Below, in pieces: positions 10,114 to 29,517 of a DNA stretch of 29,517 nucleotides. How positions within the stretch are numbered: position 1 is the first letter of the stretch; every line of letters begins with the position of its first letter. The DNA is from a virus (taxonomy: Duplodnaviria; Heunggongvirae; Uroviricota; Caudoviricetes): the IMG/VR virus record IMGVR_UViG_2531839446_000026, positions 1-29,517 of that record; one strand, 5' to 3'. The translations under genes were made by a program, and so were the position numbers. The notes under the pieces are model-generated. The model was not told the origin of the DNA. It saw only the letters and a list, made by a program, of their open reading frames with translations, and made no database searches.

Positions 10114-10124
10114 CTGAGGTAATT

Positions 10125-10307
10125 ATGATCATGCTGATTCTCGCGCCTCTGGTGGGCGTGCTGGGGGCGCTTTTGCTGGCGTATGGTGCCTGGCTGATTT
10201 ATCCCCCGGCGGGGTTTGTTGTTGCCGGGGCGTTGTGTCTGTTCTGGTCGTGGCTGGTGGCGCGATATCTCGACCGTACACAGTCGTCTGTCGGCGGAGG
10301 TAAATAG
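10125..10307 (+). CDS. Small hydrophobic protein (two predicted TM helices), hypothetical
   Basis: GAGGT 4-5 nt upstream of the ATG; stop overlaps the portal GTG start (translational coupling). Confidence 0.45.
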
Positions 10308-12176: not shown

Positions 12177-12190
12177 TCAGGAGAAATACG

Positions 12191-13396: not shown

Positions 13397-13445
13397 TCAT
13401 TCAGGGGCGCGGAACCGCGCCCCCTGTTCTGACGGGTGAAGAATC

Positions 13446-13646
13446 ATGATCCTGAAACAAGATCTGAAATGGTCACCGGACGGTATGCGTGTTGAGGTCA
13501 TTCGGGCCGGTGAGTATGACGACGGGGCGCTTCCTGCCCGGGTGCAGGAGATTGCACTTCAGGCCGGGTTAGCTGAGCGCGGAACCAGTGCAAAAAGCAG
13601 TAAAGCGGCAAAAGAGAAAAAAGCCACGACCAGTAAAGAGAGCTGA
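13446..13646 (+). CDS. Hypothetical small protein with Lys-rich C-terminus
   Basis: 66-aa ORF between the capsid and connector genes with a plausible SD (GGTGAAG); no family recognised. Confidence 0.4.
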   Translation: MILKQDLKWSPDGMRVEVIRAGEYDDGALPARVQEIALQAGLAERGTSAKSSKAAKEKKATTSKES

Positions 13647-13648
13647 GT

Positions 13649-13972
13649 ATGCTTCTGACAATGGAAGAGATTAAAGCCCAACTCCGGCTGGATGAGGATT
13701 TCGATACTGATGACCGCCATCTGCAACTGCTGGCATGTGCGGCACAAAAGCGGACGGAAACGTATCTGAACCGGAAGCTCTATGCACCGGATGAAACCAT
13801 TCCGGACAGCGATCCGGACGGGCTGCACCTGCCGGATGATATTCGTCTGGGGATGCTGATGCTTATCAGCCATTTTTACGAAAACCGCTCGTCGGTTACG
13901 GAAGTGGAGAAACTCGACATGCCGCAGAGTTTTGGCTGGCTTGTCGGCCCGTACAGGTACTTTCCGCAATGA
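13649..13972 (+). CDS. Head-tail connector (gp6-like DNA-packaging/connector protein)
   Basis: N-terminus MEEIKAQLRLDEDFDTDD..LQLL..AAQ matches the gp6-like connector signature. Confidence 0.8.
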   Translation: MLLTMEEIKAQLRLDEDFDTDDRHLQLLACAAQKRTETYLNRKLYAPDETIPDSDPDGLHLPDDIRLGMLMLISHFYENRSSVTEVEKLDMPQSFGWLVGPYRYFPQ

Positions 13973-14379
13973 AAATTCGTCAGGCGCAGACCAGCGCAAC
14001 CTACATTCTGCCGGACCCCGGTGAACTGAATAAACGCGTCCTGATCCGCCTGCGGGTGGATATGCCCGCGGATAACTTTGGCGTGGAGCCTCAATACCCG
14101 GTTACGTTCCGGACATGGGCGAAGGTTATCCAGACCAGTGCCACCACCTGGCAGGAAACCGCGCAGACCGGGGACGCCATCACCCATTACATCACTATTC
14201 GTTACCGCCGGGGGATCACCGCTGATTATGAGGTGGTCTGCGGTGACAGTGTGTACCGGGTGAAACGTCAGCGCGATCTGAACGGGGCGCGGCGCTTTCT
14301 GCTGCTGGAGTGTACGGAGCTGGGCGAATGTAGGCAGAGTCACGGAGGCAACAATGACGACTTCCTTTTTGCACGTTGA
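13969..14379 (+). CDS. Head closure / head-tail adaptor protein
   Basis: ..FRTWAKVIQ.SATTWQE...GDAITHYITIRYRRGIT.DYEVV.GD..YRV pattern typical of phage head-closure proteins; overlapping start and stop with neighbours. Confidence 0.8.
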   Translation: MKIRQAQTSATYILPDPGELNKRVLIRLRVDMPADNFGVEPQYPVTFRTWAKVIQTSATTWQETAQTGDAITHYITIRYRRGITADYEVVCGDSVYRVKRQRDLNGARRFLLLECTELGECRQSHGGNNDDFLFAR

Positions 14380-14860
14380 TTTTCAGCAGCCCGCGGAGAT
14401 GCGCTTTAACCGCGCCCGTGTCCGGCGGGCGTTTGTCACGATTGGTCAGCGTCATATGCGTGATGCCCGTCGGCTGGTGATGCGCCGTGCGCGGTCGGCA
14501 CCGGGTGAAAACCCCGGTTATCAGACCGGACGCCTGGCTCGTTCGATTGGTTACATGGTACCCAGAGCCAGTAAACATCGCCCTGGTTTTATGGCACGTA
14601 TAGCCCCTAACCAGCGTAATGGAGAGGGAAACCGCCGTATCACCGGTGATTTTTATCCGGCTTTTTTGTTCTATGGCGTGAGGCGAGGGGCAAAGCGTCG
14701 TCGCAGCCATCATCGTGGTGCATCCGGTGGCAGCGGCTGGCGACTGGCTCCACGTAATAACTTCATGGTGGAAACGCTTGAAAAGAACCGCAGCTGGACA
14801 CGCTATTTTCTGGCGCGGGAATTGCGTAAATCACTGAAGCCGGAGCGACGACACAGATGA
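14354..14860 (+). CDS. HK97 gp10-family tail-completion protein
   Basis: ..GENPGYQTGRLARSIGY.. motif and position after the head-closure gene. Confidence 0.7.
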   Translation: MTTSFLHVDFQQPAEMRFNRARVRRAFVTIGQRHMRDARRLVMRRARSAPGENPGYQTGRLARSIGYMVPRASKHRPGFMARIAPNQRNGEGNRRITGDFYPAFLFYGVRRGAKRRRSHHRGASGGSGWRLAPRNNFMVETLEKNRSWTRYFLARELRKSLKPERRHR

Positions 14861-15417
14861 AACTGACGCCTGTTATTGCTGCACTGCGTGCCCGTTGTCC
14901 GTATTTTGAAAACCGGGTTGCAGGCGCGGCCCAGTTCAAAAATCTGCCGGAGGTCGGAAAGCTGAAACTCCCGGCGGCATATGTTGTACCGGGTGATGAT
15001 TCTCCGGGAGAAAACAAAAGCCAGACCGACTACTGGCAGGAGCTGAAAGAGGGCTTCTCCGTGGTTGTCATACTGAGTAACGGGCGTGATGAGCGCGGTC
15101 AGTTTGCTTCGTATGATGTGGTGGACGATGTCCGGCAGATGCTCTTTAAGGCCCTGCTGGGCTGGAACCCGGAAGCGTGCGGTAACCCGATTAACTATGA
15201 CGGCGGCACGCTGCTGGATCTGAATCGTCATGAGCTGATTTATCAGTTCGATTTTTCGATCATCAGCGAGCTGACTGAAGACGATACCCGCCAGCAGGAT
15301 GACCTGAACAGTCTGGATGAACTGCGAACGCTGGCGATTGATGTTGATTATCTCGATCCCGGTAACGGGCCTGACGGCGATATCGAACATCACACCGAAA
15401 TAACCCTTCCTTCCTGA
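14857..15417 (+). CDS. Hypothetical neck or tail protein (pre-sheath)
   Basis: 186-aa ORF translationally coupled to the upstream gene; family not recognised. Confidence 0.55.
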   Translation: MKLTPVIAALRARCPYFENRVAGAAQFKNLPEVGKLKLPAAYVVPGDDSPGENKSQTDYWQELKEGFSVVVILSNGRDERGQFASYDVVDDVRQMLFKALLGWNPEACGNPINYDGGTLLDLNRHELIYQFDFSIISELTEDDTRQQDDLNSLDELRTLAIDVDYLDPGNGPDGDIEHHTEITLPS

Positions 15418-15425
15418 GAATCTTC

Positions 15426-15596
15426 ATGTTTGTGAAACCTGTTAAAGGGCGGTCAGTGCCTGACCCTGCCCGCGGTGACCTTTTGCCCGCCGAAGGGCGA
15501 AATGTTGACGAGAACAACTACTGGCTGCGCCGTGAAGCAGCGGGTGATATCCGGCGCGTGAATAAAAAGGTGAACACCGATGACGATAAGCTTTAA
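15426..15596 (+). CDS. Possible small protein upstream of the sheath gene (56 aa; below the ORF-table cutoff)
   Basis: ATG at 15426, stop at 15594-15596, overlapping the sheath start by 17 nt; no clear SD. Confidence 0.3.
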   Translation: MFVKPVKGRSVPDPARGDLLPAEGRNVDENNYWLRREAAGDIRRVNKKVNTDDDKL

Positions 15597-17076
15597 CACC
15601 ATTCCGTCGAATACGCTGGTTCCGCTGTTTTATGCGGAAATGGATAACCAGGCGGCGAATACTGCACAGGACAGCGGAGCATCGCTGCTGATTGGTCATG
15701 CCAATAACGGTGCAGAGATTGTTGCCAACAGTCTGGTGCTGATGCCGTCGGCAGACTATGCACGCCAGATTTGTGGTGCGGGAAGTCAGCTGGCGCGTAT
15801 GGTCGAGGCTTATCGCCAGACCGACCCGTTTGGTGAACTGTATGTAATTGCCGTTCCTGAATCCACGGGCGCGGCGGCAACGGTTACGCTGACGGTGACC
15901 GGGGCGGCAACCGAAACCGGCACGGTGAATGTTTATGTGGGACGTACCCGCGTGCAGGCACCGGTGACCAACGGCGATAACGTCACGACGATTGCCAGCA
16001 GTATCAAAGATGCCATTAATGCCGTTCCGGCCCTGCCGTTTACGGCCTCATCTTCGGCAGGCGTGGTCACGCTGACCGCGCGTCATAAGGGGCTTTGCGG
16101 GAATGAAATTCCTGTCAGCCTCAATTACTACGGCTTTGGTGGGGGCGAAGTGCTGCCAGCGGGCGTACAGATTGCTGTGGCGACGGGGAGCGCCGGAACG
16201 GGCGCTCCGGTTCTCACCGGCGCGGTGGCTGCAATGGCGGATGAGCCGTTTGATTATATTGGCCTGCCGTTCAACGACACGGCCTCCGTTAACACGCTGG
16301 TGACAGAGATGAACGATACCAGCGGTCGCTGGAGCTATGCGCGTCAGCTGTATGGTCATGTGTATACGGCAAAGATCGGCACGCTGTCAGAACTGGTGAA
16401 CGCAGGTGACCAGTTTAACCAGCAGCACATTACCCTGGCGGGATACGAAAAAGAGACCCAGACGCCTGCCGACGAGCTGGCGGCAAGCCGTACCGCCCGC
16501 GCAGCGGTGTTTATTCGCAACGATCCGGCACGTCCCACGCAGACCGGTGAGCTGGTGGGTATGCTGCCTGCGCCGAAGGGGAAACGGTTCACGATGACCG
16601 AACAACAGACCCTGCTGTCTCATGGCGTGGCAACGGCGTATGTCGAAAGCGGGGTGCTGCGCATTCAGCGTGATGTCACCACGTACAGGAAAAACGCTTA
16701 CGGTGTTGCGGATAACAGCTACCTCGACAGCGAGACGCTGCATACCAGCGCGTATGTGCTGCGCAAACTGAAATCCGTCATTACCAGTAAGTACGGGCGT
16801 CACAAGCTTGCCAGCGACGGTACCCGCTTTGGTCCCGGTCAGGCGATTGTCACACCGGCGGTGATCAAAGGGGAACTGCTGGCAACCTACCGTCAGCTTG
16901 AGCGTGCGGGGATCGTGGAAAACTACGAACTGTTTAAGCAGTACCTGGTTGTGGAGCGTGATGCCAGCGATCCGAACCGCCTGAACACGCTGTTCCCGCC
17001 TGACTATGTTAACCAGTTGCGTGTCTTTGCCGTGGTTAACCAGTTCCGTCTTCAGTATTCAGAGGAGTCTGCATAA
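15580..17076 (+). CDS. Contractile tail sheath protein (Mu gpL-like)
   Basis: 498-aa ORF followed directly by the tube gene, chaperone and tape measure; N-terminus TISFNTIPSNTLVPLFYAE typical of sheath proteins. Confidence 0.9.
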   Translation: MTISFNTIPSNTLVPLFYAEMDNQAANTAQDSGASLLIGHANNGAEIVANSLVLMPSADYARQICGAGSQLARMVEAYRQTDPFGELYVIAVPESTGAAATVTLTVTGAATETGTVNVYVGRTRVQAPVTNGDNVTTIASSIKDAINAVPALPFTASSSAGVVTLTARHKGLCGNEIPVSLNYYGFGGGEVLPAGVQIAVATGSAGTGAPVLTGAVAAMADEPFDYIGLPFNDTASVNTLVTEMNDTSGRWSYARQLYGHVYTAKIGTLSELVNAGDQFNQQHITLAGYEKETQTPADELAASRTARAAVFIRNDPARPTQTGELVGMLPAPKGKRFTMTEQQTLLSHGVATAYVESGVLRIQRDVTTYRKNAYGVADNSYLDSETLHTSAYVLRKLKSVITSKYGRHKLASDGTRFGPGQAIVTPAVIKGELLATYRQLERAGIVENYELFKQYLVVERDASDPNRLNTLFPPDYVNQLRVFAVVNQFRLQYSEESA

Positions 17077-17432
17077 TGGCCCGTATCGGGGGAACCTGTT
17101 ATTTCAAAATTGACGGTCAGCAGCTATCGCTGACCGGCGGCATTGAGGTGCCCATGAACAGGACGGTCAATGATGACATCATCGGCCTGGACGGTTCAGT
17201 GGACCGCAAGGAAACTCACCGTGCGCCTTATGTCAAAGGGACCTTCAAGGTGCCGAAGAATTTTCCGGTGAGCAAAATCACCTCGTCTGATGAGATGACC
17301 ATCACTGCCGAGCTGGCGAACGGTCAGGTCTATGTATTGTCGTCCGCCTGGCTGCACGGCGAAGCGAACCATAATGCCGAAGAAGGCACGGTTGATCTTG
17401 AGTTCCACGGTGAAGAAGGGGATTACCAGTAA
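17076..17432 (+). CDS. Tail tube protein (Mu gpM-like)
   Basis: 118-aa ORF, start overlaps the sheath stop (TAATG). Confidence 0.85.
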   Translation: MARIGGTCYFKIDGQQLSLTGGIEVPMNRTVNDDIIGLDGSVDRKETHRAPYVKGTFKVPKNFPVSKITSSDEMTITAELANGQVYVLSSAWLHGEANHNAEEGTVDLEFHGEEGDYQ

Positions 17433-17701
17433 TGAAAGAGCTTGAGTTAAAGAAACCGATTATCGCTCATGGTGAGACACTCTCCGTACTGGAGTTTGAT
17501 GAACCCACCGGGAAGGATGTCCGCGAGCTGGGGTATCCCTACCAGATGAATCAGGATGAGTCAGTCAGACTTCTGGCGCATGTGGTGTCGAAATACATTG
17601 TGCGGCTGGCGAAAGTGCCGCAAAGCTCTGTCGACCAGATGTCTCCGGCAGACCTGAATGCAGCGGCGTGGCTTGTGGCTGGTTTTTTCCTCCAGGCCTG
17701 A
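17432..17701 (+). CDS. Tail assembly chaperone (G-like short form)
   Basis: 89-aa ORF immediately upstream of the tape measure gene, ending just after a T-TTT-TTC slippery heptamer. Confidence 0.8.
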   Translation: MKELELKKPIIAHGETLSVLEFDEPTGKDVRELGYPYQMNQDESVRLLAHVVSKYIVRLAKVPQSSVDQMSPADLNAAAWLVAGFFLQA

Positions 17702-17850
17702 CGGCTGAATACCTCACTGATCGCTTCTTTGACTGCGCCAGCTACTGGCGCATTAATCCCTTCGAATTGCTGAATATGCCTATCAGTGAAATTCCCTTGC
17801 TGGTCAGTCAGGCAAACAGGATAGAGCAGGAGAAACGCACACATGGCTGA
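17432..17850 (+). CDS. Tail assembly chaperone -1 frameshift fusion product (G-T-like long form)
   Basis: A -1 slip at 17683-17689 moves the ribosome into the frame of ORF 17668..17850, which ends 8 nt inside the tape measure gene. Confidence 0.65.
17683..17689 (+). other. Programmed -1 ribosomal frameshift slippery heptamer T-TTT-TTC
   Basis: In the 0 frame of the chaperone gene the codons are GGT TTT TTC; after a -1 slip the next codon is CCT in the frame of the overlapping ORF. Confidence 0.65.
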
Positions 17851-19678
17851 ATTTGAGCTTAAGGCGTTGATCACCGGTGTCGACAGGCTTTCTCCCGCGC
17901 TGTCGAAAATGCAAAAGAAAATCCGGGGATTTAAACGCCAGGCGGAAGAAGCGTCACAGGGTGGGCTGGCGCTTGGTGGAGGACTGGCAGCGGGGCTGAC
18001 GCTTTCCCTGAAATCTTATGCCGATCAGGAAAACGCCGCTACCGGGCTGAAAGTCGCCATGATGGATGCGAACGGCGAGGTTGGAAAGAGCTTTCAGGAC
18101 ATCAATAAACTGGCTATTGGCCTGGGTAACCAGCTACCCGGTACAACGGCTGATTTCCAGAACATGATGCAGATGCTGGTGCGTCAGGGGATCCCGGCAG
18201 AAAACATTCTGGGTGGTGTGGGTAAAGCGACAGCTTATCTTGCGGTACAACTGAAAAAAACACCGGAAGCGGCTGCTGAATTTGCTGCAAAGATGCAGGA
18301 TGCTACCGGAACGGCGTCAGAAGACATGATGGGGCTGTTCGACACTATCCAGAAGGCGTTTTATCTGGGCGTTGACGATACCAACATGTTGTCCTTCTTC
18401 ACTAAAACCAGTTCTGTTCTGAAGATGGTGAACAAGGACGGTCTTCAGGCTGCACAGAGCCTTGCCCCCATCAGCGTCATGATGGATCAGATGGGGATGA
18501 ACGGGGAGTCGGCAGGTAATGCCCTGCGAAAAGTTATCCAGTCCGGATTAAGCGTTAAGAAAATCAGGGACGTCAATAAAATCATGGCCCGCCAGAAACT
18601 CGGGGTACAGCTCGATTTTACTGACGGCAAAGGAAGTTTTGGCGGTCTTGATAACATGTTCAGGCAACTGGCAAAGCTGCGAAAACTGACTGACGTTAAG
18701 CGAACAGGTGTACTTAAGGCAATATTTGGTGATGATGCCGAAACCCTTCAGGTGGTCAATGCACTAATCGATAAAGGAAAGGATGGCTACGATCAGATCC
18801 AGCAGAAGATGAATAAACAGGCCAGCCTGAATAAACGTGTTCAGGCCCAGCTTGGTACGCTGTCCAACCTGTGGGAGGCAATGACGGGGACCGCAACTAA
18901 CGGCCTTGCGGCTATTGGCGGCGCATTTTCTGGTGACGCCAAAAATATCACGCAATGGCTGGGGGAGTTAGGGGAAAAATTCACGAAGTTTGCGGATGAA
19001 AATCCCCGGGTTATTCGCGGCGTCGTCGGGCTTGCTGCCGGTCTTGCGATTCTGAAACTGGGATTGATGGGCGTTGGCGGTGCCATCAGTATTGTCAGCA
19101 GGATCATGTCGATGACGCCGATTGGAATGATTGCGACGGCGATAGCCCTGGCTGCGGGATTAATTATCACTAACTGGGATGTTGTCGGACCTTATTTCAA
19201 GAAGCTCTGGGAAACCATTGGTCCTTATTTTGAGGCTGGCTGGGAACTTCTGAAGAAGGTTTTTGCCTGGTCGCCGCTGGGGATGGTAATCAATAACTGG
19301 GGACCGGTTGTTAAGTGGTTTCAGGATATGTGGGACAAACTGAAGCCAATTATTGAGTGGTTTACCGACAGTTCCGGTGACACGGTCGATGCCATTAACT
19401 CTGCGCAGTGGGGCGCGGGTGCTTATGATGCTTATGGGACGGGAATACCGGCACGGGGATACACACCTTATCAGGCGGTAGATCCGGCTCAGTCAAACAA
19501 CGCCTCCGGTGCCACAGGCCCGAATCCCTTCATGATTAACAAAGCTTCTGCGCCAAAAGTTGATGGTGAGATCAAGGTCTCTTTTGTGAATTCGCCTCCG
19601 GGTATGCGGGTTATGGAAACGCGATCCAGCGGTTTTGATGTCAGCCATGATGTTGGCTATACGCGCTTTGGCAGGTAA
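17843..19678 (+). CDS. Tail tape measure protein
   Basis: 611-aa ORF, Ala/Gly-rich with hydrophobic C-terminal segments; canonical position after the frameshifting chaperone. Confidence 0.9.
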   Translation: MAEFELKALITGVDRLSPALSKMQKKIRGFKRQAEEASQGGLALGGGLAAGLTLSLKSYADQENAATGLKVAMMDANGEVGKSFQDINKLAIGLGNQLPGTTADFQNMMQMLVRQGIPAENILGGVGKATAYLAVQLKKTPEAAAEFAAKMQDATGTASEDMMGLFDTIQKAFYLGVDDTNMLSFFTKTSSVLKMVNKDGLQAAQSLAPISVMMDQMGMNGESAGNALRKVIQSGLSVKKIRDVNKIMARQKLGVQLDFTDGKGSFGGLDNMFRQLAKLRKLTDVKRTGVLKAIFGDDAETLQVVNALIDKGKDGYDQIQQKMNKQASLNKRVQAQLGTLSNLWEAMTGTATNGLAAIGGAFSGDAKNITQWLGELGEKFTKFADENPRVIRGVVGLAAGLAILKLGLMGVGGAISIVSRIMSMTPIGMIATAIALAAGLIITNWDVVGPYFKKLWETIGPYFEAGWELLKKVFAWSPLGMVINNWGPVVKWFQDMWDKLKPIIEWFTDSSGDTVDAINSAQWGAGAYDAYGTGIPARGYTPYQAVDPAQSNNASGATGPNPFMINKASAPKVDGEIKVSFVNSPPGMRVMETRSSGFDVSHDVGYTRFGR

Positions 19679-19738
19679 TGAAAAATTAATCTGTTAATGA
19701 GTCCCACTCCGGTGGGATTTTTTATGTACGGAGTTTAT

Positions 19739-21067
19739 ATGACGTGGAAAGACAGACTTCAGGACGCGTCATTTCGCGGTGTGCCGTTTAAGGTTGAAGA
19801 AGAAAGTGCGGGAACCGGTCGTCGTGTGGAAACGCACGAATACCCGAACCGCGACAAACCCTATACCGAAGACCTGGGGAAAATCACTTTCCGCCCGTCC
19901 ATCACAGCTTATGTGGTGGGAGATGACTGCTTTGACCAGCGCGATCGCCTGATTGACGCGCTGAATAAACCCGGTCCCGGCACGCTTGTCCATCCGACTT
20001 ACGGTGAGCTGAAAGTCTGTGTTGACGGGGAAGTTCGGGTCAGCACATCGAAGAGTGAAGGGCGTATTGTCCGCTTTGACCTGAAGTTTGTCGAAGCGGG
20101 AGAACTCTCTTACCCCACTTCAGGTGCGGCGACGGCGCAGACGCTGATGTCATCCTGTTCTGCACTGGATGACTGCATCAGTGACAGCTTCAGTGGTTTC
20201 AGTATCGATGGCGTGGCAGATTTTGTGCAGAACGACGTCGTCGGTAATGCCAGCACAATGCTTGGGTATGTTTCTGATGCGATGAAAGTGGTGGATTCTG
20301 CCGTATCGGATGCCGCCAGGCTGTTGCAGGGGGATATCTCGGTACTTCTGCCGCCACCATCGTCAGGCAAAAATTTCGTTGAGCAGGTGCAGAAAATGTG
20401 GCGTACCGGGAAACGCCTTTATGGTAACGCCAGCGACCTGGTCACCATGATCAAAACGCTTTCCGGTGTCAGCCTCGGCAGCGATCTGCAACCGCGCGGC
20501 GTCTGGAAAACGGACAGTAAAACTACCGCCACGGCGACGCAGCAGCGTAACGTGGTTGCCAGCACCCTTCGTACGACCGCAATCAGCGAAGCGGCGTATG
20601 CCGTCACACGATTGCCTGCGCCCACAACTTCCGCGGTGATGCAGAATGCCACAGTAGGGCAGTCAACAACACCCGCGCAGAGCACCGGCTGGCCTTCTGT
20701 CACGCATCCGGCACTGAACAATGCACCGGCGGTGAAAAACACGGTTGACCTGCCAACGTGGGAAGAACTGACCGACATTCGCGACACACTGAATACGGCA
20801 ATTGATAAGGAGTTGTCCCGTACAACCAGTGATGCGCTGTTTCTGGCGCTGCGCCGGGTGAAAGCAGATCTGAATGCGGATATCAACACGCGCCTTGAAC
20901 AGTCTGCACGGATCATTCAGCGCACGCCGGATGAGGTTTTACCCGCGCTGGTGCTGGCGGCGACCTGGTTTGATAACGCGGCGCGTGACGCGGACATTAT
21001 CCGGCGTAATGCCATTACGCATCCCGGCTTTGTGCCGGTGATCCCTCTGAAGGTGCCAGTGCAATGA
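19739..21067 (+). CDS. Mu gpN-like DNA circularisation / baseplate hub protein
   Basis: N-terminus MTWKDRLQDASFRGVPFKVE.....GRR...HEYP; GGAG 5 nt upstream of ATG 19739 (ORF table starts at 19697). Confidence 0.85.
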   Translation: MTWKDRLQDASFRGVPFKVEEESAGTGRRVETHEYPNRDKPYTEDLGKITFRPSITAYVVGDDCFDQRDRLIDALNKPGPGTLVHPTYGELKVCVDGEVRVSTSKSEGRIVRFDLKFVEAGELSYPTSGAATAQTLMSSCSALDDCISDSFSGFSIDGVADFVQNDVVGNASTMLGYVSDAMKVVDSAVSDAARLLQGDISVLLPPPSSGKNFVEQVQKMWRTGKRLYGNASDLVTMIKTLSGVSLGSDLQPRGVWKTDSKTTATATQQRNVVASTLRTTAISEAAYAVTRLPAPTTSAVMQNATVGQSTTPAQSTGWPSVTHPALNNAPAVKNTVDLPTWEELTDIRDTLNTAIDKELSRTTSDALFLALRRVKADLNADINTRLEQSARIIQRTPDEVLPALVLAATWFDNAARDADIIRRNAITHPGFVPVIPLKVPVQ

Positions 21068-22143
21068 ACGATAACGTCACGCTACGGGTAAATGGCCGGG
21101 AGTGGAATGGCTGGACATCGGTGCGCATCGGTGCCGGTGTTGAACGACTGGCGCGGGATTTCAGTGTGGAGATCACCCGCCAGTGGCCGGGAGATGAGGG
21201 TATCACCACGCTTCAGCCGCGCATTAAAAACGGTTCAAAAGTGGAAGTGCTAATTGGTGATGAGCTGGTGATCACCGGCTGGGTGGAGGCGACTCCCGTT
21301 CGTTACGATGCCCGTTCGGTCAGCACCGGTATTGCCGGACGTAGTCTGACGGCTGACCTGATTGACTGTGCAGCCGAACCGACACAGTTTAACGGACGCT
21401 CGCTGGTGCAGATTGCGCAGGCGCTTGCTGCGCCTTTCGGCATTGAGGTGGTGAACAGCGGTGCGCCGTCGGGTGTTATTCCTGATGTTCAGCCTGATCA
21501 CGGTGAAACGGTGATTGAGGTAATCAACAAAATACTCGGTCAGCAGCAGGCGCTGGCTTACGACGACCCGCACGGCAGGCTGGTGATTGGCGGTATTGGC
21601 TCAACGCGGGCACATACCGCGCTGGTACTTGGGGAAAACATCCTTTCCTGTGATACGGAGAAGAGTATCCGGGAGCGATTTTCTGTTTACCAGGTGGCGG
21701 GGCAGCGTGCCGGAAACGACGATGATTTCGGTGAGGCCACCACCACCGCGCTGCGGGCCCGCACAGAGGACGCATTTATTGCCCGTTACCGTCCGATGTA
21801 TATCAGGCAGACAGGGCAGGCTACGGGGGCAGGTTGTATTGCCCGTGCGGACTTTGAAGCCCGACAACGGGCGGCGCGGACGGATGAAACCACCTATGTG
21901 GTGCAGGGCTGGCGACAGGGTAACGGTACGCTGTGGCAGCCCAACCAGCGGGTGATTGTCTTCGATCCGGTCTGTGGTTTCGACAATACCGAACTGCTTG
22001 TTTCGGAAGTCACGTTTACTCAGGACCAGAACGGCACCCTGACGGAAATCCGTGTCGGCCCACCTGATGCTTATCTGCCTGAACCCGAAGCCCCCGGCGC
22101 GCGGAAAAAGAAAAAAGCCAGAGTACAGGAGGACCCGTTCTGA
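21064..22143 (+). CDS. Mu gpP-like baseplate protein
   Basis: 359-aa ORF in Mu-type baseplate gene order (N-P-V-gp46-J-gp48); start overlaps upstream stop. Confidence 0.8.
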   Translation: MNDNVTLRVNGREWNGWTSVRIGAGVERLARDFSVEITRQWPGDEGITTLQPRIKNGSKVEVLIGDELVITGWVEATPVRYDARSVSTGIAGRSLTADLIDCAAEPTQFNGRSLVQIAQALAAPFGIEVVNSGAPSGVIPDVQPDHGETVIEVINKILGQQQALAYDDPHGRLVIGGIGSTRAHTALVLGENILSCDTEKSIRERFSVYQVAGQRAGNDDDFGEATTTALRARTEDAFIARYRPMYIRQTGQATGAGCIARADFEARQRAARTDETTYVVQGWRQGNGTLWQPNQRVIVFDPVCGFDNTELLVSEVTFTQDQNGTLTEIRVGPPDAYLPEPEAPGARKKKKARVQEDPF

Positions 22144-22691
22144 TGAGGACGATTGAAGCCATGCAGCGACAACTCCTCGGCCTGATTGGGCGGGCAGTGG
22201 TGAAAAGCATCAGTGCCGCCACGAAATGTCAGACCGTGGATGTGTCCCTGATTGCCGGTGAACCCAAAGCCGGGGTTGAACATCTTGAACCCTACGGTTT
22301 TACCGCAAGGGCAAACAGCGGTGCGGAAGCGGTGGTGTTGTTTCCGGATGGCGACCGTTCTCATGCGGTGGTTGTTACGGTGTCGGACCGGCGCTACCGC
22401 CTGAAAGGGCTGCAGACGGGTGAGGTGGCGGTCTATGACGATCAGGGGCAGTCCGTGACGCTGACCCGGGAGGGGATCGTGGTGGACGGTGCAGGTAAAA
22501 CGATCACGTTTCGCAATGCACCTGAAGCACGTTTTGAAATGGACCTGGAAGTGACAGGACAGGTGAAAGACCTGTGCGACTCCAGCGGCACCACCATGTC
22601 AGCGATGCGGCTTGCCTATAACGGGCATCGTCACAGAGAGAACGGTCAGGGCAGTAACACCGACAAACCTGATAAAGCGATGGAGGCATGA
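22143..22691 (+). CDS. Baseplate assembly protein V (gp45-like spike)
   Basis: 182-aa ORF; ..EPYGFTARAN.GAEAVVLFPDGDRSH.VVV.. pattern of V/gp45 proteins. Confidence 0.85.
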   Translation: MRTIEAMQRQLLGLIGRAVVKSISAATKCQTVDVSLIAGEPKAGVEHLEPYGFTARANSGAEAVVLFPDGDRSHAVVVTVSDRRYRLKGLQTGEVAVYDDQGQSVTLTREGIVVDGAGKTITFRNAPEARFEMDLEVTGQVKDLCDSSGTTMSAMRLAYNGHRHRENGQGSNTDKPDKAMEA

Positions 22692-23116
22692 TGGAACTGT
22701 GGCTGACGGTGAACGGTAAACGCACCTGCGCCAGCGCACCGCTGGATCCGCTGACCCGCGCCGTGGTGATTTCCCTGTTTACCTGGCGGCGGGCGGAGCC
22801 TGATGACAATGCCGACGTCCCGATGGGATGGTGGGGGGATACCTGGCCTGCGGTACAGAATGACCGTTACGGCTCTCGACTGTGGCTGCTTCAGCGCAGC
22901 AAACTGACCAATCAGCTGGTGCAGACGGTAAGGGAGTATATCCGCGAATGCCTGCAATGGATGATTGATGATGGCGTGGTGTCCCGTATTGATCTGGATA
23001 TCCGCCGCACCGGGATTAATGAACTGGGTAACAGTATCACTCTCTGGCGTCGTGACGGACCGGTAATGATTTCTTTTGATGATCTGTGGAGTGCGATAAC
23101 GCATGGCGGACAGTGA
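22688..23116 (+). CDS. Baseplate protein, phage GP46 family
   Basis: 142-aa ORF between the V and J-like genes. Confidence 0.75.
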   Translation: MMELWLTVNGKRTCASAPLDPLTRAVVISLFTWRRAEPDDNADVPMGWWGDTWPAVQNDRYGSRLWLLQRSKLTNQLVQTVREYIRECLQWMIDDGVVSRIDLDIRRTGINELGNSITLWRRDGPVMISFDDLWSAITHGGQ

Positions 23117-24161
23117 ATTTCAGCGCCCGACGCTGGCAGAAAATATCAGTATGCTCCGTAACGATTTATTCGCCAGGCTGGACGTCAGCGACACGCTCCG
23201 GCGCATGGATGAAGACGTGCGGGCAAAGGTGTATGCGGCGGCGCTGCATACGGTTTACGGGTACATCGATTATCTGGCAATGAACATTCTGCCTGACCTG
23301 TGCGATGAGTCCTGGCTGGCGCGACATGCTGCGATGAAACGGTGTCCGCGCAAGGGGGCCACGGCTGCCAGCGGGTATATACGCTGGGAAGGTGTCAGCG
23401 ATGGCCTGAAGGTGACCGCCGGGAGTGTTATTCAGCGCGATGACCTGGTTCAGTACACGGCAACTGCCGATGCAACCAGCTCCGGTGGTGTCCTGCGCGT
23501 GCCGATCGCCTGCTCAAGTGCAGGCGCGGTCGGTAACGCTGACGACGGTACGTCATTAATCCTGGTCACGCCGGTTAATGGTCTGCCGTCTTCCGGTGTG
23601 GCTGACCCCCTTACAGGCGGATTTGATACTGAAGAGCTGGAAACGTGGCGCGCCCGCGTCATTGAGCGGTATTACTGGACGCCGCAGGGCGGGGCTGACG
23701 GGGACTATGTCGTCTGGGCTAAAGAAGTGCCCGGCATTACCCGCGCATGGACATACCGTCACTGGATGGGAACGGGGACTGTCGGTGTGATGATTGCCGG
23801 CAGTGACCTGATTAATCCCATTCCGGAAGAATCAACGGAAACGGCGGCAAGACAACACATTGAGCCACTGGCCCCGGTGGCAGGCTCTGATTTGTATGTG
23901 TTCAGGCCGGTGGCGCATACGGTGGATTTTCATATCCGCGTGACGCCGGACACACCGGAAATACGAGCCGCCATCACTGCTGAGTTGCGTTCGTTCCTGC
24001 TGCGTGATGGTTATCCGCAGGGAGAACTGAAGGTGTCGCGTATCAGTGAAGCGATTTCCGGTGCGAACGGGGAATACAGCCATCAATTGCTTGCACCGGC
24101 GGACAATATCTCCATTGCAAAAAATGAACTGGCGGTTCTGGGGACGATTTCATGGACGTGA
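23103..24161 (+). CDS. Baseplate J-like protein (gp47 / JayE-like)
   Basis: 352-aa ORF in conserved position. Confidence 0.85.
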
Positions 24162-24736
24162 CAAACGATGATTACATCCGTCTGTTGTCGGCACTGCTGC
24201 CGCCCGGTCCGGCGTGGTCAGCCAGCGATCCGGCGATTGCCGGTGCGGCACCGTCATTAACTCGTGTTCATCAGCGTGCGGATGCCCTGATGCGGGAGCT
24301 GGATCCGCGCACCACCACTGAACTGATAAACCGCTGGGAGCGTCTGTGCGGTCTGCCGGATGAATGTATTCCGGCGGGAACGCAGACCCTTCGCCAGCGT
24401 CAGCAACGGCTGGATGCGAAGGTTAACCTGGCGGGCGGCATCAACGAGGATTTTTATCTTGCACAGCTTGCTGCCCTGGGCAGACCAGATGCCACCATCA
24501 CGCGATACGACAAAAGCACTTTCACCTGCTCATCGGCCTGTACTGACGCGGTGAATGCACCGGAATGGCGGTATTACTGGCAGGTCAACATGCCAGCCAC
24601 CACCAACACCACCTGGATGACATGTGGCGATCCCTGTGATTCCGCACTGCGTATCTGGGGGGACACCGTTGTCGAGTGCGTGCTTAACAAACTCTGCCCG
24701 TCGCATACCTACGTAATTTTTAAATATCCGGAGTAA
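24152..24736 (+). CDS. Tail protein gp48 / YmfQ-like
   Basis: 194-aa ORF directly upstream of the tail fibre gene; equivalent to e14 ymfQ by position and size. Confidence 0.75.
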
Positions 24737-24739
24737 TCC

Positions 24740-25480
24740 ATGCATCGTATAGACACGAAAACCGCGCAGAAGGATAAGTTCGGCGCGGGTAAGAACGGTT
24801 TTACCCGTGGTAACCCCCAGACTGGCACGCCTGCCACCGATCTGGATGATGACTACTTTGACATGTTGCAGGAGGAACTTTGCAGCGTGGTGGAGGCATC
24901 CGATGCCAGCCTGGAGAAGGGGCGGCACGACCAGTTACTTACCGCACTTCGCGCGCTGCTGTTAAGCCGCAAGAATCCGTTTGGCGATATCAAATCGGAT
25001 GGCACTGTGCAAACGGCTCTCGAAAACCTTGGTTTGGGAGAAGGCTCTGCATTACCTGTTGGTGTCCCTGTTCCGTGGCCTTCAGCTACGCCGCCAACAG
25101 GCTGGCTGAAATGCAATGGCGCTGCCTTTGATAAGGTTAAATATCCCCGTCTTGCTACAGCATATCCATCAGGGAAACTACCTGATCTCCGCGGTGAGTT
25201 TATTCGTGGCTGGGATGATGGGCGCGGCATTGATACAGGGCGTGCTTTATTGAGTATTCAGAGTGATGAAGTCAGAAAGCTCGCATTAAAATACTGGGGA
25301 CCAGCTTCAAACAGTTCACCATCAAAAACATTTGCACTCAGCGACAGTGCCGGTGGCGGGTTGTACACGGATGGAATAAGTCAGGCAAGCGGTGGGATTA
25401 TCAACGCTTTTCAGCTCCCTGGCGGTAACGAAACCCGCCCACGAAATGTTGCATTTAACTATATCGTGAGGGCTGCATAA
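24740..25480 (+). CDS. Side tail fibre protein: constant N-terminal part fused to the currently expressed variable C-terminal part (Sv)
   Basis: Tail-collar-like C-terminal domain ([14 protein letters not shown]....YP.LA.....[21 protein letters not shown]); an inversion crossover site lies inside the gene at 25029-25043. Confidence 0.85.
25029..25043. repeat. Left inverted-repeat core of the Pin-type invertible segment (gix/pix-like crossover site)
   Basis: ttggtttgggagaag is the exact reverse complement of 26877-26891; flanking bases extend the similarity to ~21 of 25. Confidence 0.75.
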
Positions 25481-26082
25481 TGGATAATGTTGTATTAAAT
25501 AGCGAGTTTATTGCCACGAAGGCGGGGAATATTACCGTCTATAACTATGATAGTGAAACACGGGAATATATTTCCACATCAACTGAATATCTTGCTGTGG
25601 GTGTCGGTATTCCGGCATGTTCCTGTCTTGATGCACCTGGCATACATAAGGTTGGTTATGCAATCTGTCGTTCTGTGAATTTAAATTCATGGGAATATGT
25701 GCCAGACCATCGCGGTGAAATCGTCTATAGCACAGAAACAGGAGAATCAAAAGAAATCACAGCTCCGGGTGATTACCCTGAAAATACAACCACTATCGCC
25801 CCTTTATCTCCATACGATAAATGGGATGGTGAGAAATGGGTGACCGATACTGAGGCACAGCATAGCGCCGCAGTAGACGCGGCAGAAGCACAGCGCCAGT
25901 CACTGATTGATGCTGCTATGGCTTCCATCAGTCTGATTCAACTGAAATTGCAGGCCGGACGGAAACTGACGCAGGCAGAAACAACCCGACTTAACGCCGT
26001 GCTGGATTACACTGACGCGGTGACGGCAACAGATACCAGCACCGCGCCGGATGTCATCTGGCCTGAACTGCCGGAGGCGTAG
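25480..26082 (+). CDS. Tail fibre assembly protein (Tfa), active orientation
   Basis: 200-aa ORF whose start overlaps the tail fibre stop (TAATG); C-terminal ..TAPDVIWPELPEA motif typical of Tfa chaperones. Confidence 0.85.
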   Translation: MDNVVLNSEFIATKAGNITVYNYDSETREYISTSTEYLAVGVGIPACSCLDAPGIHKVGYAICRSVNLNSWEYVPDHRGEIVYSTETGESKEITAPGDYPENTTTIAPLSPYDKWDGEKWVTDTEAQHSAAVDAAEAQRQSLIDAAMASISLIQLKLQAGRKLTQAETTRLNAVLDYTDAVTATDTSTAPDVIWPELPEA

Positions 26083-26506
26083 GCCATTTAATATCTGGCG
26101 CACCGGAAGTATCGACCAGTTCCAGTGCGTCCAGATAATCCAGCCACAGATTATATTGCGCCAGTTCCTCGCCTTTCAGACGACCAATAGCGGCTTTACC
26201 GGGCCATTGTTTACTGTTCATATAATCGTTGGCCTGATTAATTAGTAGCTGTCTTTCTGATTCAGTAATTTCAATAAGTTCTTCATGCGTAGGGGCAGGA
26301 ATATCCGCCCACGCGGGCAGCCCATCACCTCCGGCAATACGGATTTTTCCTTGTGGCGGTTCAGCCATAAATTCACTGATAATATTTTGACTCACCTCCT
26401 TAGCATCTGATAAATCCCATCCCTCTGATTTATATTTATCAATCATATCCACAGGGAAAAAAGCATTATGCCTTGCGCTATAAACATATTCGTTCATATA
26501 AATCAT
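26054..26506 (-). CDS. Alternative tail fibre assembly protein (Tfa'), silent orientation
   Basis: 150-aa ORF on the opposite strand inside the invertible segment; C-terminal ..GAPDIKWPTPP.. parallels Tfa. Confidence 0.8.
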   Translation of the reverse strand: MIYMNEYVYSARHNAFFPVDMIDKYKSEGWDLSDAKEVSQNIISEFMAEPPQGKIRIAGGDGLPAWADIPAPTHEELIEITESERQLLINQANDYMNSKQWPGKAAIGRLKGEELAQYNLWLDYLDALELVDTSGAPDIKWPTPPAVQAR

Positions 26507-26517
26507 CCTGAATAAAA

Positions 26518-26931
26518 TTATTCACCAACAGCCCACCAACTGTAAGTCATTGACACCTTGTCGCTGGTTGATGCAGTTCTGTAAGCAGAATTAAAGCCGG
26601 TTAATGTTGGGCCTTCTACGGACATAACGAATCCACGCCCTGCACCAAAAGGCGCACCGCCATCGCCAGAATGGGTAAGAATGGCGATATCCGCTTTTTT
26701 AGGGAAAGGGATAGGAAATGTAATCCTCATTGTTTGCGTCGATAATTTCGGCATAGCCTCACCTCGACCATATTGCAGGATTTTCCCGTTGGGTAATTTC
26801 ATCCATCCATCACCACTGGCAAACGAGGCCATGTCCGGTATCTGATTTTCCCCTGTCCCCACATTCCGTTTTGCCGCTTCTCCCAAACCAACGTTTAAGA
26901 AAATGCAGAGATTATGGCTAACTGGCATCAT
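26518..26931 (-). CDS. Alternative tail fibre variable C-terminal segment (Sv'), promoterless and startless until inversion; only 26518-26891 lies inside the segment
   Basis: Reading frame through the right crossover site encodes ..NVGLGEAAK.., matching ..NLGLGEGSA.. at the left site in the tail fibre gene, so inversion fuses the constant part to this segment. Confidence 0.7.
26877..26891. repeat. Right inverted-repeat core of the Pin-type invertible segment
   Basis: cttctcccaaaccaa, reverse complement of 25029-25043; ~70 bp upstream of the pin start. Confidence 0.75.
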
Positions 26932-26958
26932 CCCCGGTTTTTACTCAGGGGAATGCTC

Positions 26959-27513
26959 ATGCTTATTAGCTATGTCCGCGTATCAACAAATAACCAGAAT
27001 ACGGAATTGCAGCGTAATGCGCTGGAGTGTGCAGGATGTGAGCTGATTTTTGAAGACAAGATAAGCGGTACAAAGTCCGACAGACCAGGACTGAAAAAGC
27101 TGCTCAGGACATTATCGGCAGGTGACACGCTGGTGGTCTGGAAACTGGACCGACTGGGGCGCAGTATGCGGCATCTTGTCGTGCTGGTGGAGGAGTTGCG
27201 CGAACGAGGCATCAACTTTCGTAGTCTGACGGATTCAATTGATACCAGTACCCCAATGGGGCGCTTTTTCTTTCATGTGATGGGTGCCCTGGCTGAAATG
27301 GAGCGTGAACTGATTGTTGAAAGAACAAAAGCTGGACTGGAAGCTGCTCGCGCACAGGGACGAATTGGTGGACGTCGTCCCAAACTTACACCAGAACAAT
27401 GGGAACAGGCCGGACGATTAATTGCATCAGGAGTTCCTCGCCAGAAGGTGGCGATTATCTATGATGTTGGTGTGTCAACTTTGTATAAGAGGTTTCCTGC
27501 AGGGGATAAATAA
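26959..27513 (+). CDS. pin: Serine DNA invertase, Pin/Gin/Hin/Cin family
   Basis: MLISYVRVSTNNQNTELQRNAL... with catalytic Ser in YVRVST and a C-terminal HTH; close to recalled E. coli PinE. ATG at 26959 preferred over the ORF-table start at 26914. Confidence 0.92.
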   Translation: MLISYVRVSTNNQNTELQRNALECAGCELIFEDKISGTKSDRPGLKKLLRTLSAGDTLVVWKLDRLGRSMRHLVVLVEELRERGINFRSLTDSIDTSTPMGRFFFHVMGALAEMERELIVERTKAGLEAARAQGRIGGRRPKLTPEQWEQAGRLIASGVPRQKVAIIYDVGVSTLYKRFPAGDK

Positions 27514-27619
27514 AGTTAAAGACACTTTGTGTACAAAAGAAAGTAAAACAACAGCAACTTGTTGCAATTTTATCAATAAAAGTAGTATTGTCGTGAAAAA
27601 TTGATTAAAGATTAATATT

Positions 27620-28453
27620 ATGCATGTTTTTGATAACAATGGAATTGAACTGAAAGCTGAGTGTTCGATAGGTGAAGAGGATGGTGTTTATGGTCTAATC
27701 CTTGAGTCGTGGGGGCCGGGTGACAGAAACAAAGATTACAATATCGCTCTTGATTATATCATTGAACGGTTGGTTGATTCTGGTGTATCCCAAGTCGTAG
27801 TATATCTGGCGTCATCATCAGTCAGAAAACATATGCATTCTTTGGATGAAAGAAAAATCCATCCTGGTGAATATTTTACTTTGATTGGTAATAGCCCCCG
27901 CGATATACGCTTGAAGATGTGTGGTTATCAGGCTTATTTTAGTCGTACGGGGAGAAAGGAAATTCCTTCCGGCAATAGAACGAAACGAATATTGATAAAT
28001 GTTCCAGGTATTTATAGTGACAGTTTTTGGGCGTCTATAATACGTGGAGAACTATCAGAGCTTTCACAGCCTACAGATGATGAATCGCTTCTGAATATGA
28101 GGGTTAGTAAATTAATTAAGAAAACGTTGAGTCAACCCGAGGGCTCCAGGAAACCAGTTGAGGTAGAAAGACTACAAAAAGTTTATGTCCGAGACCCGAT
28201 GGTAAAAGCTTGGATTTTACAGCAAAGTAAAGGTATATGTGAAAACTGTGGTAAAAATGCTCCGTTTTATTTAAATGATGGAAACCCATATTTGGAAGTG
28301 CATCATGTAATTCCCCTATCTTCAGGTGGTGCTGATACAACAGATAACTGTGTTGCCCTTTGTCCGAATTGCCATAGAGAATTGCACTATAGTAAAAATG
28401 CAAAAGAACTAATCGAGATGCTTTACGTTAATATAAACCGATTACAGAAATAA
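27620..28453 (+). CDS. mcrA: McrA-type HNH restriction endonuclease targeting modified cytosine
   Basis: 277-aa ORF recognised from memory as E. coli e14 McrA; C-terminal HNH motif HHVIPLSSGGADTTDNCVALCPNCHRELH; AT-rich. Confidence 0.9.
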   Translation: MHVFDNNGIELKAECSIGEEDGVYGLILESWGPGDRNKDYNIALDYIIERLVDSGVSQVVVYLASSSVRKHMHSLDERKIHPGEYFTLIGNSPRDIRLKMCGYQAYFSRTGRKEIPSGNRTKRILINVPGIYSDSFWASIIRGELSELSQPTDDESLLNMRVSKLIKKTLSQPEGSRKPVEVERLQKVYVRDPMVKAWILQQSKGICENCGKNAPFYLNDGNPYLEVHHVIPLSSGGADTTDNCVALCPNCHRELHYSKNAKELIEMLYVNINRLQK

Positions 28454-28686
28454 AATTATTTATTAAAGTCACATTTAAGACGTAATACCCTACAGGGTAA
28501 AAATTTTTTCTGATCTTAACTTCTGCAAATGTTAACTGCTATTTTTATGCTAAAAATGGTTATCAAAACTCAAAAACACATGTTTATAATCAATGAGTTA
28601 TAGAAATGCTAAGGGCTAATGAGTTATATGCAAATTAGTAAAATTATGTTGCTATGTCAAATAGTTACGATTTAGTCATCTAACTA

Positions 28687-28851
28687 ATGCTGCGCCATAT
28701 GGGTTGGACTGAAGCCGCAGACCTGATTGTTAAAGGTATGGAAGGCGCAATCAACGCGAAAACCGTAACCTATGACTTCGAACGTCTGATGGAAGGCGCT
28801 AAACTGCTGAAATGTTCAGAGTTTGGTGACGCGATCATCAAGAATATGTAA
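28687..28851 (+). pseudogene. icd: Displaced 3' fragment of isocitrate dehydrogenase gene (icd'), marking the prophage right attachment junction
   Basis: Translates to [54 protein letters not shown], the C-terminal ~54 residues of Icd, with no upstream coding continuity. Confidence 0.85.
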
Positions 28852-28874
28852 TTTCTGCATGCGTTAAAAACTGT

Positions 28875-28904
28875 AACGGGCGTATAACACGCCCGTTGTT
28901 TTTA
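28875..28904 (+). terminator. Rho-independent terminator downstream of the icd fragment
   Basis: aacgggcg (28875-28882) / cgcccgtt (28890-28897) stem with a 7-nt loop, followed by gttttta. Confidence 0.7.
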
Positions 28905-29112
28905 TAAATATGTTAACCGTTATAAAATAACGTATCAAAAGTCAAGTGAACACATTTCAAATATCAATTTGATCGTATTGGTCTGGTGATTATTTATGGG
29001 GGGCAATAAAAAGACAGTATTAATCATCCATAGGGATGGTCTCTGCACTTTTATTTCCATTATGCTAATGCCTTACTGAATTATGAAGCATTTCTTAAGC
29101 TCCCAACTTTAG

Positions 29113-29517
29113 CTAGATTAATGGTTTATTATTTTCTACATCTTCAATATATAAAAGCGTATTATCAATGGCGTAGTAACTGCGTTTGTTATAATTAACA
29201 TCAGTAACCCACCGGAAAACGCCAGCGCCTGCCAGTGTTGAACAGTATTCCCGAAATGTAGATTTTCCGCGAATATGAAGCAATGCGGCCTCTTTTATTT
29301 TAGCAGGGTTCTTGGTTGTACTAACTTTTAACAGGTTCCTGGTTCCTCTTAATAATAAAACCGTGTCATCGTGAGTAATAATTCTGATGTTATCCGTAGC
29401 CAGATAATAAATGTAATGTGCAATACGGTGATGTTTTAATTCTGAATAAAACCAGGAGAAGTTTTGCTCTTTTCTCACTTGCTCAAACATCTTTTGAAAA
29501 ACAACGACCTGATCCAT
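29113..29517 (-). CDS. DUF1398-family protein (YcgX/YdfO/YbcV-like), host-side flank; ATG falls on the last 3 bases of the window
   Basis: 134-aa AT-rich ORF; ..FWSLYSELKHH...HYIYYLATDN.......AGVFRWV.. pattern recalled for DUF1398 proteins. Confidence 0.6.
   Translation of the reverse strand: MDQVVVFQKMFEQVRKEQNFSWFYSELKHHRIAHYIYYLATDNIRIITHDDTVLLLRGTRNLLKVSTTKNPAKIKEAALLHIRGKSTFREYCSTLAGAGVFRWVTDVNYNKRSYYAIDNTLLYIEDVENNKPLI

Follow-up and report, generated by a model that had tools for sequence, protein, structure and literature searches.

The right end of an e14-type prophage in icd: coordinates of attR, pin, mcrA and the invertible tail-fibre segment, and relation to e14 of Escherichia coli K-12

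What kind of element ends in a DNA invertase gene, a restriction gene and a short piece of icd is the question raised by the IMG/VR virus record IMGVR_UViG_2531839446_000026, of which positions 1-29,517 (29,517 nucleotides (nt), one strand; hereafter the window) were analysed. An earlier note, made from the letters alone, had read positions 26959-28904 as pin, mcrA and a displaced icd 3' fragment attached to a complete structural module. Using domain searches and alignment to E. coli K-12, we found all three of these features in their proposed places, and the region is almost certainly the right attachment site (attR) and terminal cargo of an e14-type temperate prophage, inserted in the icd 3' end of a B2-like E. 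coli that lacks iraM. Gene identities, boundaries, collinearity, the K-12 deletions and the lesions described below were read directly from these sequence comparisons, which now fix exactly where attR, pin, mcrA, the invertible fibre segment and the displaced icd end lie in this genome (Table 1), and give a clear picture of the origin of K-12 e14 from such a phage via two deletions.

In order to locate the prophage boundary, the window was aligned with the unoccupied site of E. coli E2348/69, in which an uninterrupted icd is followed directly by ymgL and ycgX. From 28687 to 29517 all 831 of 831 positions are identical to this icd-ycgX site, whilst the sequence upstream of 28687 is unrelated, so the right prophage boundary lies exactly between 28686 and 28687. 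As the icd' piece is 100% identical to the empty site, it is the original host 3' end and not phage DNA; its translation matches positions 302-348 of 348 in the Pfam Iso_dh profile, that is, the last 47 positions. Alignment against K-12 and E2348/69 revealed no icd homology upstream of 28687, and icd' is therefore not part of a full-length gene continuing upstream, the alternative that the earlier note had itself raised. At the K-12 position, the window thus passes from the phage arm into the final 165 nt of host icd and then into the native icd terminator, whose T-run ends at 28904 and explains why the region noted earlier ended there. An exact-pattern scan of species-representative genomes and IMG/VR recovered e14-type attR junctions in four stretches from three genomes and in 14 viral contigs; the genomes include E. 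coli and one Shigella flexneri (with two copies), and none of the sequences is identical to the window. The latter genome, S. flexneri SFBU0723 (CP182557.1), has two separate exact arm/core junctions on one chromosome (L007 and L008), each with pin-mcrA-like sequence 94-97% identical, which suggests two e14-type right ends in one genome.

The attachment core had been predicted at about 28680-28690, which is the right vicinity but a few bases off: icd homology begins at 28687, and the core is likely the 11 nt at 28687-28697, ATGCTGCGCCA. This sequence is identical in the K-12 attL (icd 3' end) and attR (icdC) copies, up to the first mismatch of their alignment, and the placement rests on that alignment together with secondary citations (PMC4444293, PMC13626634, PMC6379469). 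In BLAST, the phage-borne icd copy of K-12 resembles the host copy over 254 nt at 83.5%, spanning the coding end and the terminator. Within the AT-rich phage arm, the 11-nt sequence AATGAGTTATA occurs twice in direct orientation, at 28592-28602 and 28618-28628 (26 nt apart), both copies being conserved in the attR of K-12 and of the E. coli MEI2A-0323 prophage. These are possible arm-type sites for the integrase (or Xis), and as a short two-copy repeat in AT-rich DNA they may also be due to chance.

The two cargo genes are well preserved. The pin product matches the Pfam Resolvase (E-value 3.5e-51, 173.6 bits) and HTH_7 (51.1 bits) domains, shares 175 of 184 residues (95%) with K-12 PinE and keeps the nucleophile Ser9 within its N-terminal MLISYVRVST. 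The mcrA product is identical to K-12 EcoKMcrA at all 277 of 277 residues; it aligns with the EcoKMcrA structure (PDB 6GHC) over residues 1-277 (E-value 2.9e-190), has a Pfam HNH domain at 207-256 and matches the PADLOC model mREase_IV for type IV methyl-directed restriction, so that both the N-terminal reader domain for modified cytosine and the C-terminal HNH nuclease of EcoKMcrA are present at full length. The gene had been described as AT-rich cargo at the prophage terminus, which agrees with its fraction of guanine plus cytosine (GC) of 0.385, compared with 0.556 in the structural genes, and with its position as the last gene before attR; the flanking spacers are at 0.25-0.26. By analogy with K-12, mcrA would be an AT-rich moron whose product restricts DNA in vivo, cutting 5-methylcytosine and 5-hydroxymethylcytosine DNA that enters the lysogen and thereby protecting it. 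As mcrA is intact, the host of the window would be expected to restrict incoming cytosine-methylated DNA.

BLAST of the locus of cryptic prophage e14 from K-12 MG1655 (b1137-b1159, with icdC b4519) against the window gave four collinear blocks at 96-98% nucleotide identity, with the genes aaaE, ymfR, beeE, jayE, ymfQ, stf, tfa, pinE and mcrA in corresponding positions. The right ends have the same order (ymfQ, tail fibre, P segment, pinE, mcrA, 165-nt icd', icd terminator), and the phage arm of attR is alike down to the AATGAGTTATA repeats. The suggestion that pin-mcrA-icd' and the tail-fibre region correspond to the right end of K-12 e14 is thus borne out for pin-mcrA-icd' and for the constant stretch of the fibre gene. 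In contrast, K-12 e14 lacks window positions 10715-23373, from the portal C-terminus to the N-terminus of baseplate protein J, and everything to the left of 8977; the missing regions survive there only as the aaaE, beeE and jayE fragments, and the junction of the 10715-23373 deletion falls in a short microhomology, GGTA(T). On this alignment K-12 e14 is a deletion derivative of such a phage that has lost the replication-to-terminase and the portal-to-baseplate genes. Further differences are the IS100 element and the terS frameshift in the window copy, and one fibre cassette, which is StfP/TfaP in K-12 and gp53-like in the window. The proposal that the window holds a more complete relative or ancestor of e14 therefore stands as to completeness, K-12 e14 being a two-deletion derivative, but 'less-decayed sibling' fits better than 'ancestor', because there is 2-4% divergence between the two and their fibre cassettes are not the same.

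Full-length relatives of the window element are known. The full-length 'e14' prophages at icd in E. coli S88 (PMC3636060), MEI2A-0323, FWSEC0010 and 00-3076 share its whole architecture, which starts with Q and the lysis cassette, continues with terminase, head, tail and invertible fibre and ends with pinE, mcrA and icd', and the best of them are 96.7-97.4% identical over 87-95% of the 25-kb query. These relatives differ from the window in having intact terS and NA37 genes and no IS100 at the corresponding position, in fibre cassettes that are only 73-96% identical, and, in all of the best matches, in iraM adjoining icd'. Both attL and attR copies, as well as intE/xisE adjoining icd, are present in relatives. 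Another state of decay was seen in E. coli EC05 (L001, 12234-23977), in which every head and tail gene is gone while intE, xisE, yfdP/Q/R, the tail fibre, invertible cassette, pinE, mcrA and icd' persist, and which carries a second integrase fragment adjoining icd; this shows independent deletion routes, all of which keep pin-mcrA. Additionally, vB_EcoM-689R6 (ON470584.1, L004) was considered as a free phage with mcrA and rejected, being a partial record of a prophage region with the host genes icd, rluE, nudJ, mnmA and hflD; it contains runs of N, and its pin-mcrA is joined in inverted order to a fibre gene, without the invertible segment.

With regard to the fibre region, the first 105 residues of the fibre gene at 24740-25480 are 97% identical to K-12 StfP, and past the left crossover site, which falls at codons ~95-101, the product resembles K-12 StfE. 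At the two ends of the segment are the halves of a 20-nt inverted repeat (25024-25043 and 26877-26896, 95% complementary), which lie inside 26-bp hix/gix-like sites with central TT/AA. The region consequently has paired inverted crossover sites flanking alternative coding ends, with one constant N-terminus, two C-termini and two tfa genes. As judged from this gene content, pin and the P segment form a classical Pin/P-segment host-range switch, in which Pin would flip the 1.9-kb segment between the two hix-like sites and so exchange the receptor-binding fibre C-terminus together with its assembly chaperone. The one pointer that the segment really inverts is its orientation, opposite to that in K-12 (inverted BLAST blocks), which suggests that it does. 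The Mu Gin/G, P1 Cin/C and Salmonella Hin systems are alike in their serine recombinase (resolvase plus HTH_7) adjoining an invertible segment, in 26-bp imperfect palindromic sites with central AA/TT, and in fibre C-termini being swapped together with their chaperones; the Mu G segment measures 3 kb, as against 1.9 kb for the P segment of the window.

The fibre region also bears on a different history, in which pin, the invertible segment and mcrA are an independently mobile block grafted onto an SfV-type backbone and were not ancestral to the e14 lineage, making the window a recombinant and not a more complete e14. The similarity to phages SfII, SfI and SfV ends at the left crossover site (~25043), the variable cassettes differ among the window, MEI2A-0323 and K-12, and over window 25018-27344, comprising fibre cassette and invertase, a P2-like phage of E. 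coli O157:H43 T22 matches at 95.5% identity. As cassette and invertase thus also occur in a P2-like phage, they are a mosaic module. Nevertheless, backbone and pin-mcrA-icd' lie together in one place in 160 complete genomes, and K-12 e14 keeps backbone fragments (aaaE, ymfR, beeE, jayE and ymfQ) at 97.5% and in the same order, so the combination of backbone and pin-mcrA is older than the K-12 deletions. We therefore regard a recombinant origin of this kind as unlikely, though it has more in its favour than the other alternatives; in any case, an exchange of modules does not conflict with common descent of the e14 type.

Returning to the e14-type prophage, the earlier note had placed a full set of packaging, head and contractile-tail genes ahead of pin. 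We checked this by tblastn, taking as queries the proteins annotated in the full-length MEI2A-0323 prophage. From TerS to the tail-fibre assembly protein, 26 of 27 reference proteins align at full length and without frame breaks, TerS being the exception. All genes from TerL to the fibre assembly gene are present and in order, at 94-100% amino acid (aa) identity for the backbone and 73-100% when the variable tail-fibre and tfa genes are included; the connector and tail group (13446-24736) matches at full length or nearly so (hyp66: aa 1-65 of 66), again without frame breaks. The full gene set is accordingly there, but with terS frameshifted, be it truly or through sequencing errors, the module is probably not intact. 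Relative to phages SfII, SfI, SfIV and SfV, the module has 97-98% nucleotide identity, and its predicted products assign the backbone to the known SfV type, with a P27-family terminase, HK97-like head and Mu-like contractile tail. These Shigella flexneri serotype-converting phages share the packaging, head and contractile-tail genes up to the constant fibre part, and likewise have a cargo module between tail fibres and attachment site. They differ in that their cargo is gtrABC for O-antigen modification, without pin, mcrA or an invertible fibre segment, and in that they integrate at tRNA-thrW with a different integrase, whereas the window element is at icd. The derivation of K-12 e14 from such a phage has been known since comparative analyses of e14, SfV and SfI.

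The window copy has begun to decay: IS100 lies in the KilA-N gene, and terS and the NA37 gene are frameshifted. Three differences in terS from the reference used initially resembled clustered damage. One of them, an 8-bp difference at 8354-8361, was rejected as a lesion and is a common natural allele, because the best E. coli matches, annotated as intact, share it. Those matches, among the ones listed from 1127 matching records, measure 539 nt as against 541 nt here and lack both T insertions. If real, these insertions leave the prophage unable to package DNA unaided, and it is probably incapable of doing so by itself. The element is thus an e14/SfV-type prophage with three lesions, and therefore best annotated as probably defective, not intact. 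A minor reading is that domestication is in progress, with packaging and early genes hit and mcrA kept at 100% protein identity.

Should the lesions be sequencing artefacts or tolerated changes, the prophage could instead be a fully functional, inducible phage. In keeping with this, TerL and the head, tail and fibre genes after it, 26 in all, are full length (73-100% aa identity, or 94-100% apart from the variable fibre and tfa genes), the NA37 indel lies in a homopolymer, and the 8-bp terS variant is annotated as intact elsewhere. In disagreement with it, the insertions at 7994 and 8007 split the terS frame and are absent from the best E. coli copies among the matches listed, neither of them sits in a long homopolymer, and through IS100 the KilA-N gene has either lost its first 208 codons or been parted from them, so that they would lie outside the window; a live phage is consequently improbable, and distinctly more so than the mosaic origin. 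That there is no prophage junction at all, the icd-like stretch being simply where an ordinary full-length icd ends, or else a product of chance or of assembly, has virtually nothing left to recommend it beyond the similarity to icd itself, as it is refuted by the K-12 and E2348/69 alignments at 28687, upstream of which lies AT-rich phage DNA common to the K-12 e14 right end and without icd similarity, and as the identical junction sequence occurs in K-12, in MEI2A-0323 and in the four genomic stretches and 14 viral contigs recovered by the scan.

The arrangement is consistent with integration of a phage of the SfV/SfII/SfI type, with lambdoid early and lysis genes, HK97-like head and Mu-like contractile tail, whose attP would itself carry the final 165 nt of icd along with a terminator. 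The tyrosine integrase IntE, encoded beyond the window, would recombine attP with the icd core. With the phage-borne icd end supplied at the 11-bp core, icd would stay functional at the left end (also beyond the window), and the original host 3' end would be left at the right end as the dead fragment icd'. Several points weigh against the reading of the locus as a decayed e14-type prophage integrated in this manner. Integration of the window copy at icd is deduced from attR alone, as the left end, with attL, intE, xisE and the repressor, lies beyond the window. The probable core position comes from comparison of the att copies of other strains and not from experiment; moreover, in MEI2A-0323 the two copies are identical over about 130 nt, so the crossover point is not fixed by sequence alone. 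Sequencing error could account for the indels in terS and in the NA37 gene, the latter of which falls in an A9 homopolymer. Finally, the chemistry of integration and excision and the activities of Pin and McrA are carried over from work on K-12 e14, on the Gin/Hin/Cin/Pin invertases and on EcoKMcrA.

In order to gauge how widespread this right end is, we searched 5426 complete E. coli genomes. At a threshold of at least 80% and in one place, pin-mcrA-icd' occurs in 329 of them, and the 25-kb stretch corresponding to window 4600-29517 in 160. In published work, e14 was reported at the icd locus in 19% of 638 genomes (PMC6379469), the SfI genome paper compared the full 'e14' prophage of E. coli S88 with SfI, finding ~97% nucleotide identity over orf1-orf22, the morphogenesis genes (PMC3636060), and two further papers describe how icd and icdC become joined when e14 excises (PMC4444293; PMC13626634, citing Hill et al. 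1989). As the pin-mcrA-icd' right end of an e14-type prophage is both common in E. coli genomes and published, it is ordinary, already known and described, and has little beyond annotation value.

Table 1. Features of the window and blocks shared with the K-12 e14 locus (positions in the window; aa and nt refer to amino acid and nucleotide)
Feature	Position	Strand	Description
IS100 right part (IS21 family)	1-1311	+	Inserted in prophage early region; 99-99.8% identical to annotated IS100/IS100kyp copies
IS100 istA 3' end	4-459	+	Part of IS100 remnant at window start
IS100 istB	456-1238	+	Pfam IstB_IS21, 373 bits
KilA-N domain gene, C-terminal remnant	1301-1471	+	Truncated by IS100; tblastn with MEI2A-0323 KilA-N protein, only aa 209-265
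DUF968 gene	1476-2471	+	Full length; 99-100% aa identity (with Q) to MEI2A-0323 prophage proteins
Antiterminator Q	2474-2836 (listed open reading frame)	+	Reference Q aligns to 2489-2833; 99-100% aa identity (with DUF968)
AT-rich cargo pair between Q and lysis genes	2833-5228	-	GC 0.335
406-aa cargo protein	2833-4053	-	No Pfam or PADLOC match
NA37 nucleoid-associated protein gene, frameshifted	4076-5204	-	Split into two frames; +A in A9 run near 4794; Pfam NA37 on intact relative
Holin	5490-5816	+	Holin/endolysin 97-99% aa identical to reference
GH24 endolysin	5820-6296	+	Holin/endolysin 97-99% aa identical to reference
Rz-like open reading frame	6280-6714	+	Weak match, 64% identity over aa 1-50; no significant Pfam match
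HNH endonuclease (phage)	7364-7753	+	Upstream of terminase genes; Pfam HNH, E-value 3e-16; 96% aa identity to reference
terS, small terminase subunit (P27 family), frameshifted	7879-8372	+	Single-T insertions at 7994 and 8007, 13 nt apart
TerL	8380-10113	+	Full-length tblastn; TerL-to-capsid group 98-100% aa
ymfR	10125-10307	+	Full-length tblastn; TerL-to-capsid group 98-100% aa
Portal	10307-11548	+	Full-length tblastn; TerL-to-capsid group 98-100% aa
HK97-type prohead protease	11526-12176	+	Full-length tblastn; TerL-to-capsid group 98-100% aa
Major capsid protein	12191-13396	+	Full-length tblastn; TerL-to-capsid group 98-100% aa
Connector/closure/terminator genes	13446-15596	+	tblastn; tail group 94-100% aa
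Sheath	15580-17076	+	tblastn; tail group 94-100% aa
Tube	17076-17432	+	tblastn; tail group 94-100% aa
Tail assembly	17432-17701	+	tblastn; tail group 94-100% aa
Tape measure	17843-19678	+	tblastn; tail group 94-100% aa
DNA circulation	19739-21067	+	tblastn; tail group 94-100% aa
Baseplate genes	21064-24161	+	tblastn; tail group 94-100% aa
ymfQ	24152-24736	+	tblastn; tail group 94-100% aa
Tail-fibre gene, current fusion	24740-25480	+	Constant N-terminal ~100 aa plus StfE-like variable C-terminus
Invertible P segment, ~1.9 kb	25018-26902		hix/gix-like crossover sites at about 25018-25043 and 26877-26902
Tail-fibre assembly gene, TfaE type	25480-26082	+	Currently expressed orientation; 181/200 aa identical to K-12 TfaE (91%)
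Silent alternative cassette, second tail-fibre assembly gene	26054-26506	-	Pfam Caudo_TAP
Silent alternative cassette, alternative fibre C-terminus	26518-26931	-	gp53-like domain; Pfam Gp53-like_C
pin, serine DNA invertase (Gin/Hin/Cin/Pin family)	26959-27513	+	184 aa; Pfam Resolvase and HTH_7
mcrA, type IV modification-dependent HNH restriction endonuclease	27620-28453	+	277 aa; AT-rich cargo gene
Phage-side arm of attR	28454-28686		233 bp, AT-rich, GC 0.26
icd' (icdC equivalent), displaced host icd 3' end	28687-28851	+	165 nt including TAA stop; same extent as K-12 icdC b4519
Probable att core ATGCTGCGCCA	28687-28697	+	First 11 nt of icd homology; single occurrence in window
Native icd intrinsic terminator	28873-28904	+	11-bp stem, hairpin 28873-28899, T-run to 28904; identical to E2348/69
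ycgX (chromosomal, DUF1398)	29113-29517	-	Pfam DUF1398
K-12 block aaaE-ymfR-beeE	8977-10714		97.6%
K-12 block jayE-ymfQ-stf constant part	23374-25044		97.5%
K-12 tfaE/stfE cassette, inverted			89% / 82%
K-12 block pinE-mcrA-icdC-terminator	26877-28902		96.2%
K-12 block ymgL-ycgX	28860-29517		96.0%

The window begins inside IS100, and the other side of this insertion lies beyond it. Between Q and the lysis genes is a cargo pair with 100% aa identity in MEI2A-0323, for which a PADLOC scan of the 406-aa and NA37 proteins gave no defence-system match; in Stx phages this Q-to-holin position is occupied by the stx genes. No RNA genes were found in the whole window, including at the attachment site, by an Rfam scan at gathering thresholds and a scan for tRNA and tmRNA.

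On the chromosomal side, K-12 has ~860 bp with iraM-ymgK between icdC and ycgX (L003, 17079-17995), which are absent from window 28852-29113. Two diverged versions of the icd terminator region, each ~50 bp long, flank this piece in K-12, and the window has just one; either DNA inserted long ago at the 3' end of icd or loss of the DNA between the repeats could account for this. We tentatively consider, as a possibility that falls well short of probable, that the icd 3' end is a repeatedly used integration hot spot and that iraM is the last remnant of an older integrative element, which had brought along an icd terminator and lay nested beyond the e14 attachment site; a literature search combining iraM with e14 and icd yielded no relevant paper. 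The iraM-less arrangement is present in 1038 of the 5426 complete E. coli genomes, including E2348/69, and one further matching locus (L021) has it in the same form as the window, at 96.5% identity.

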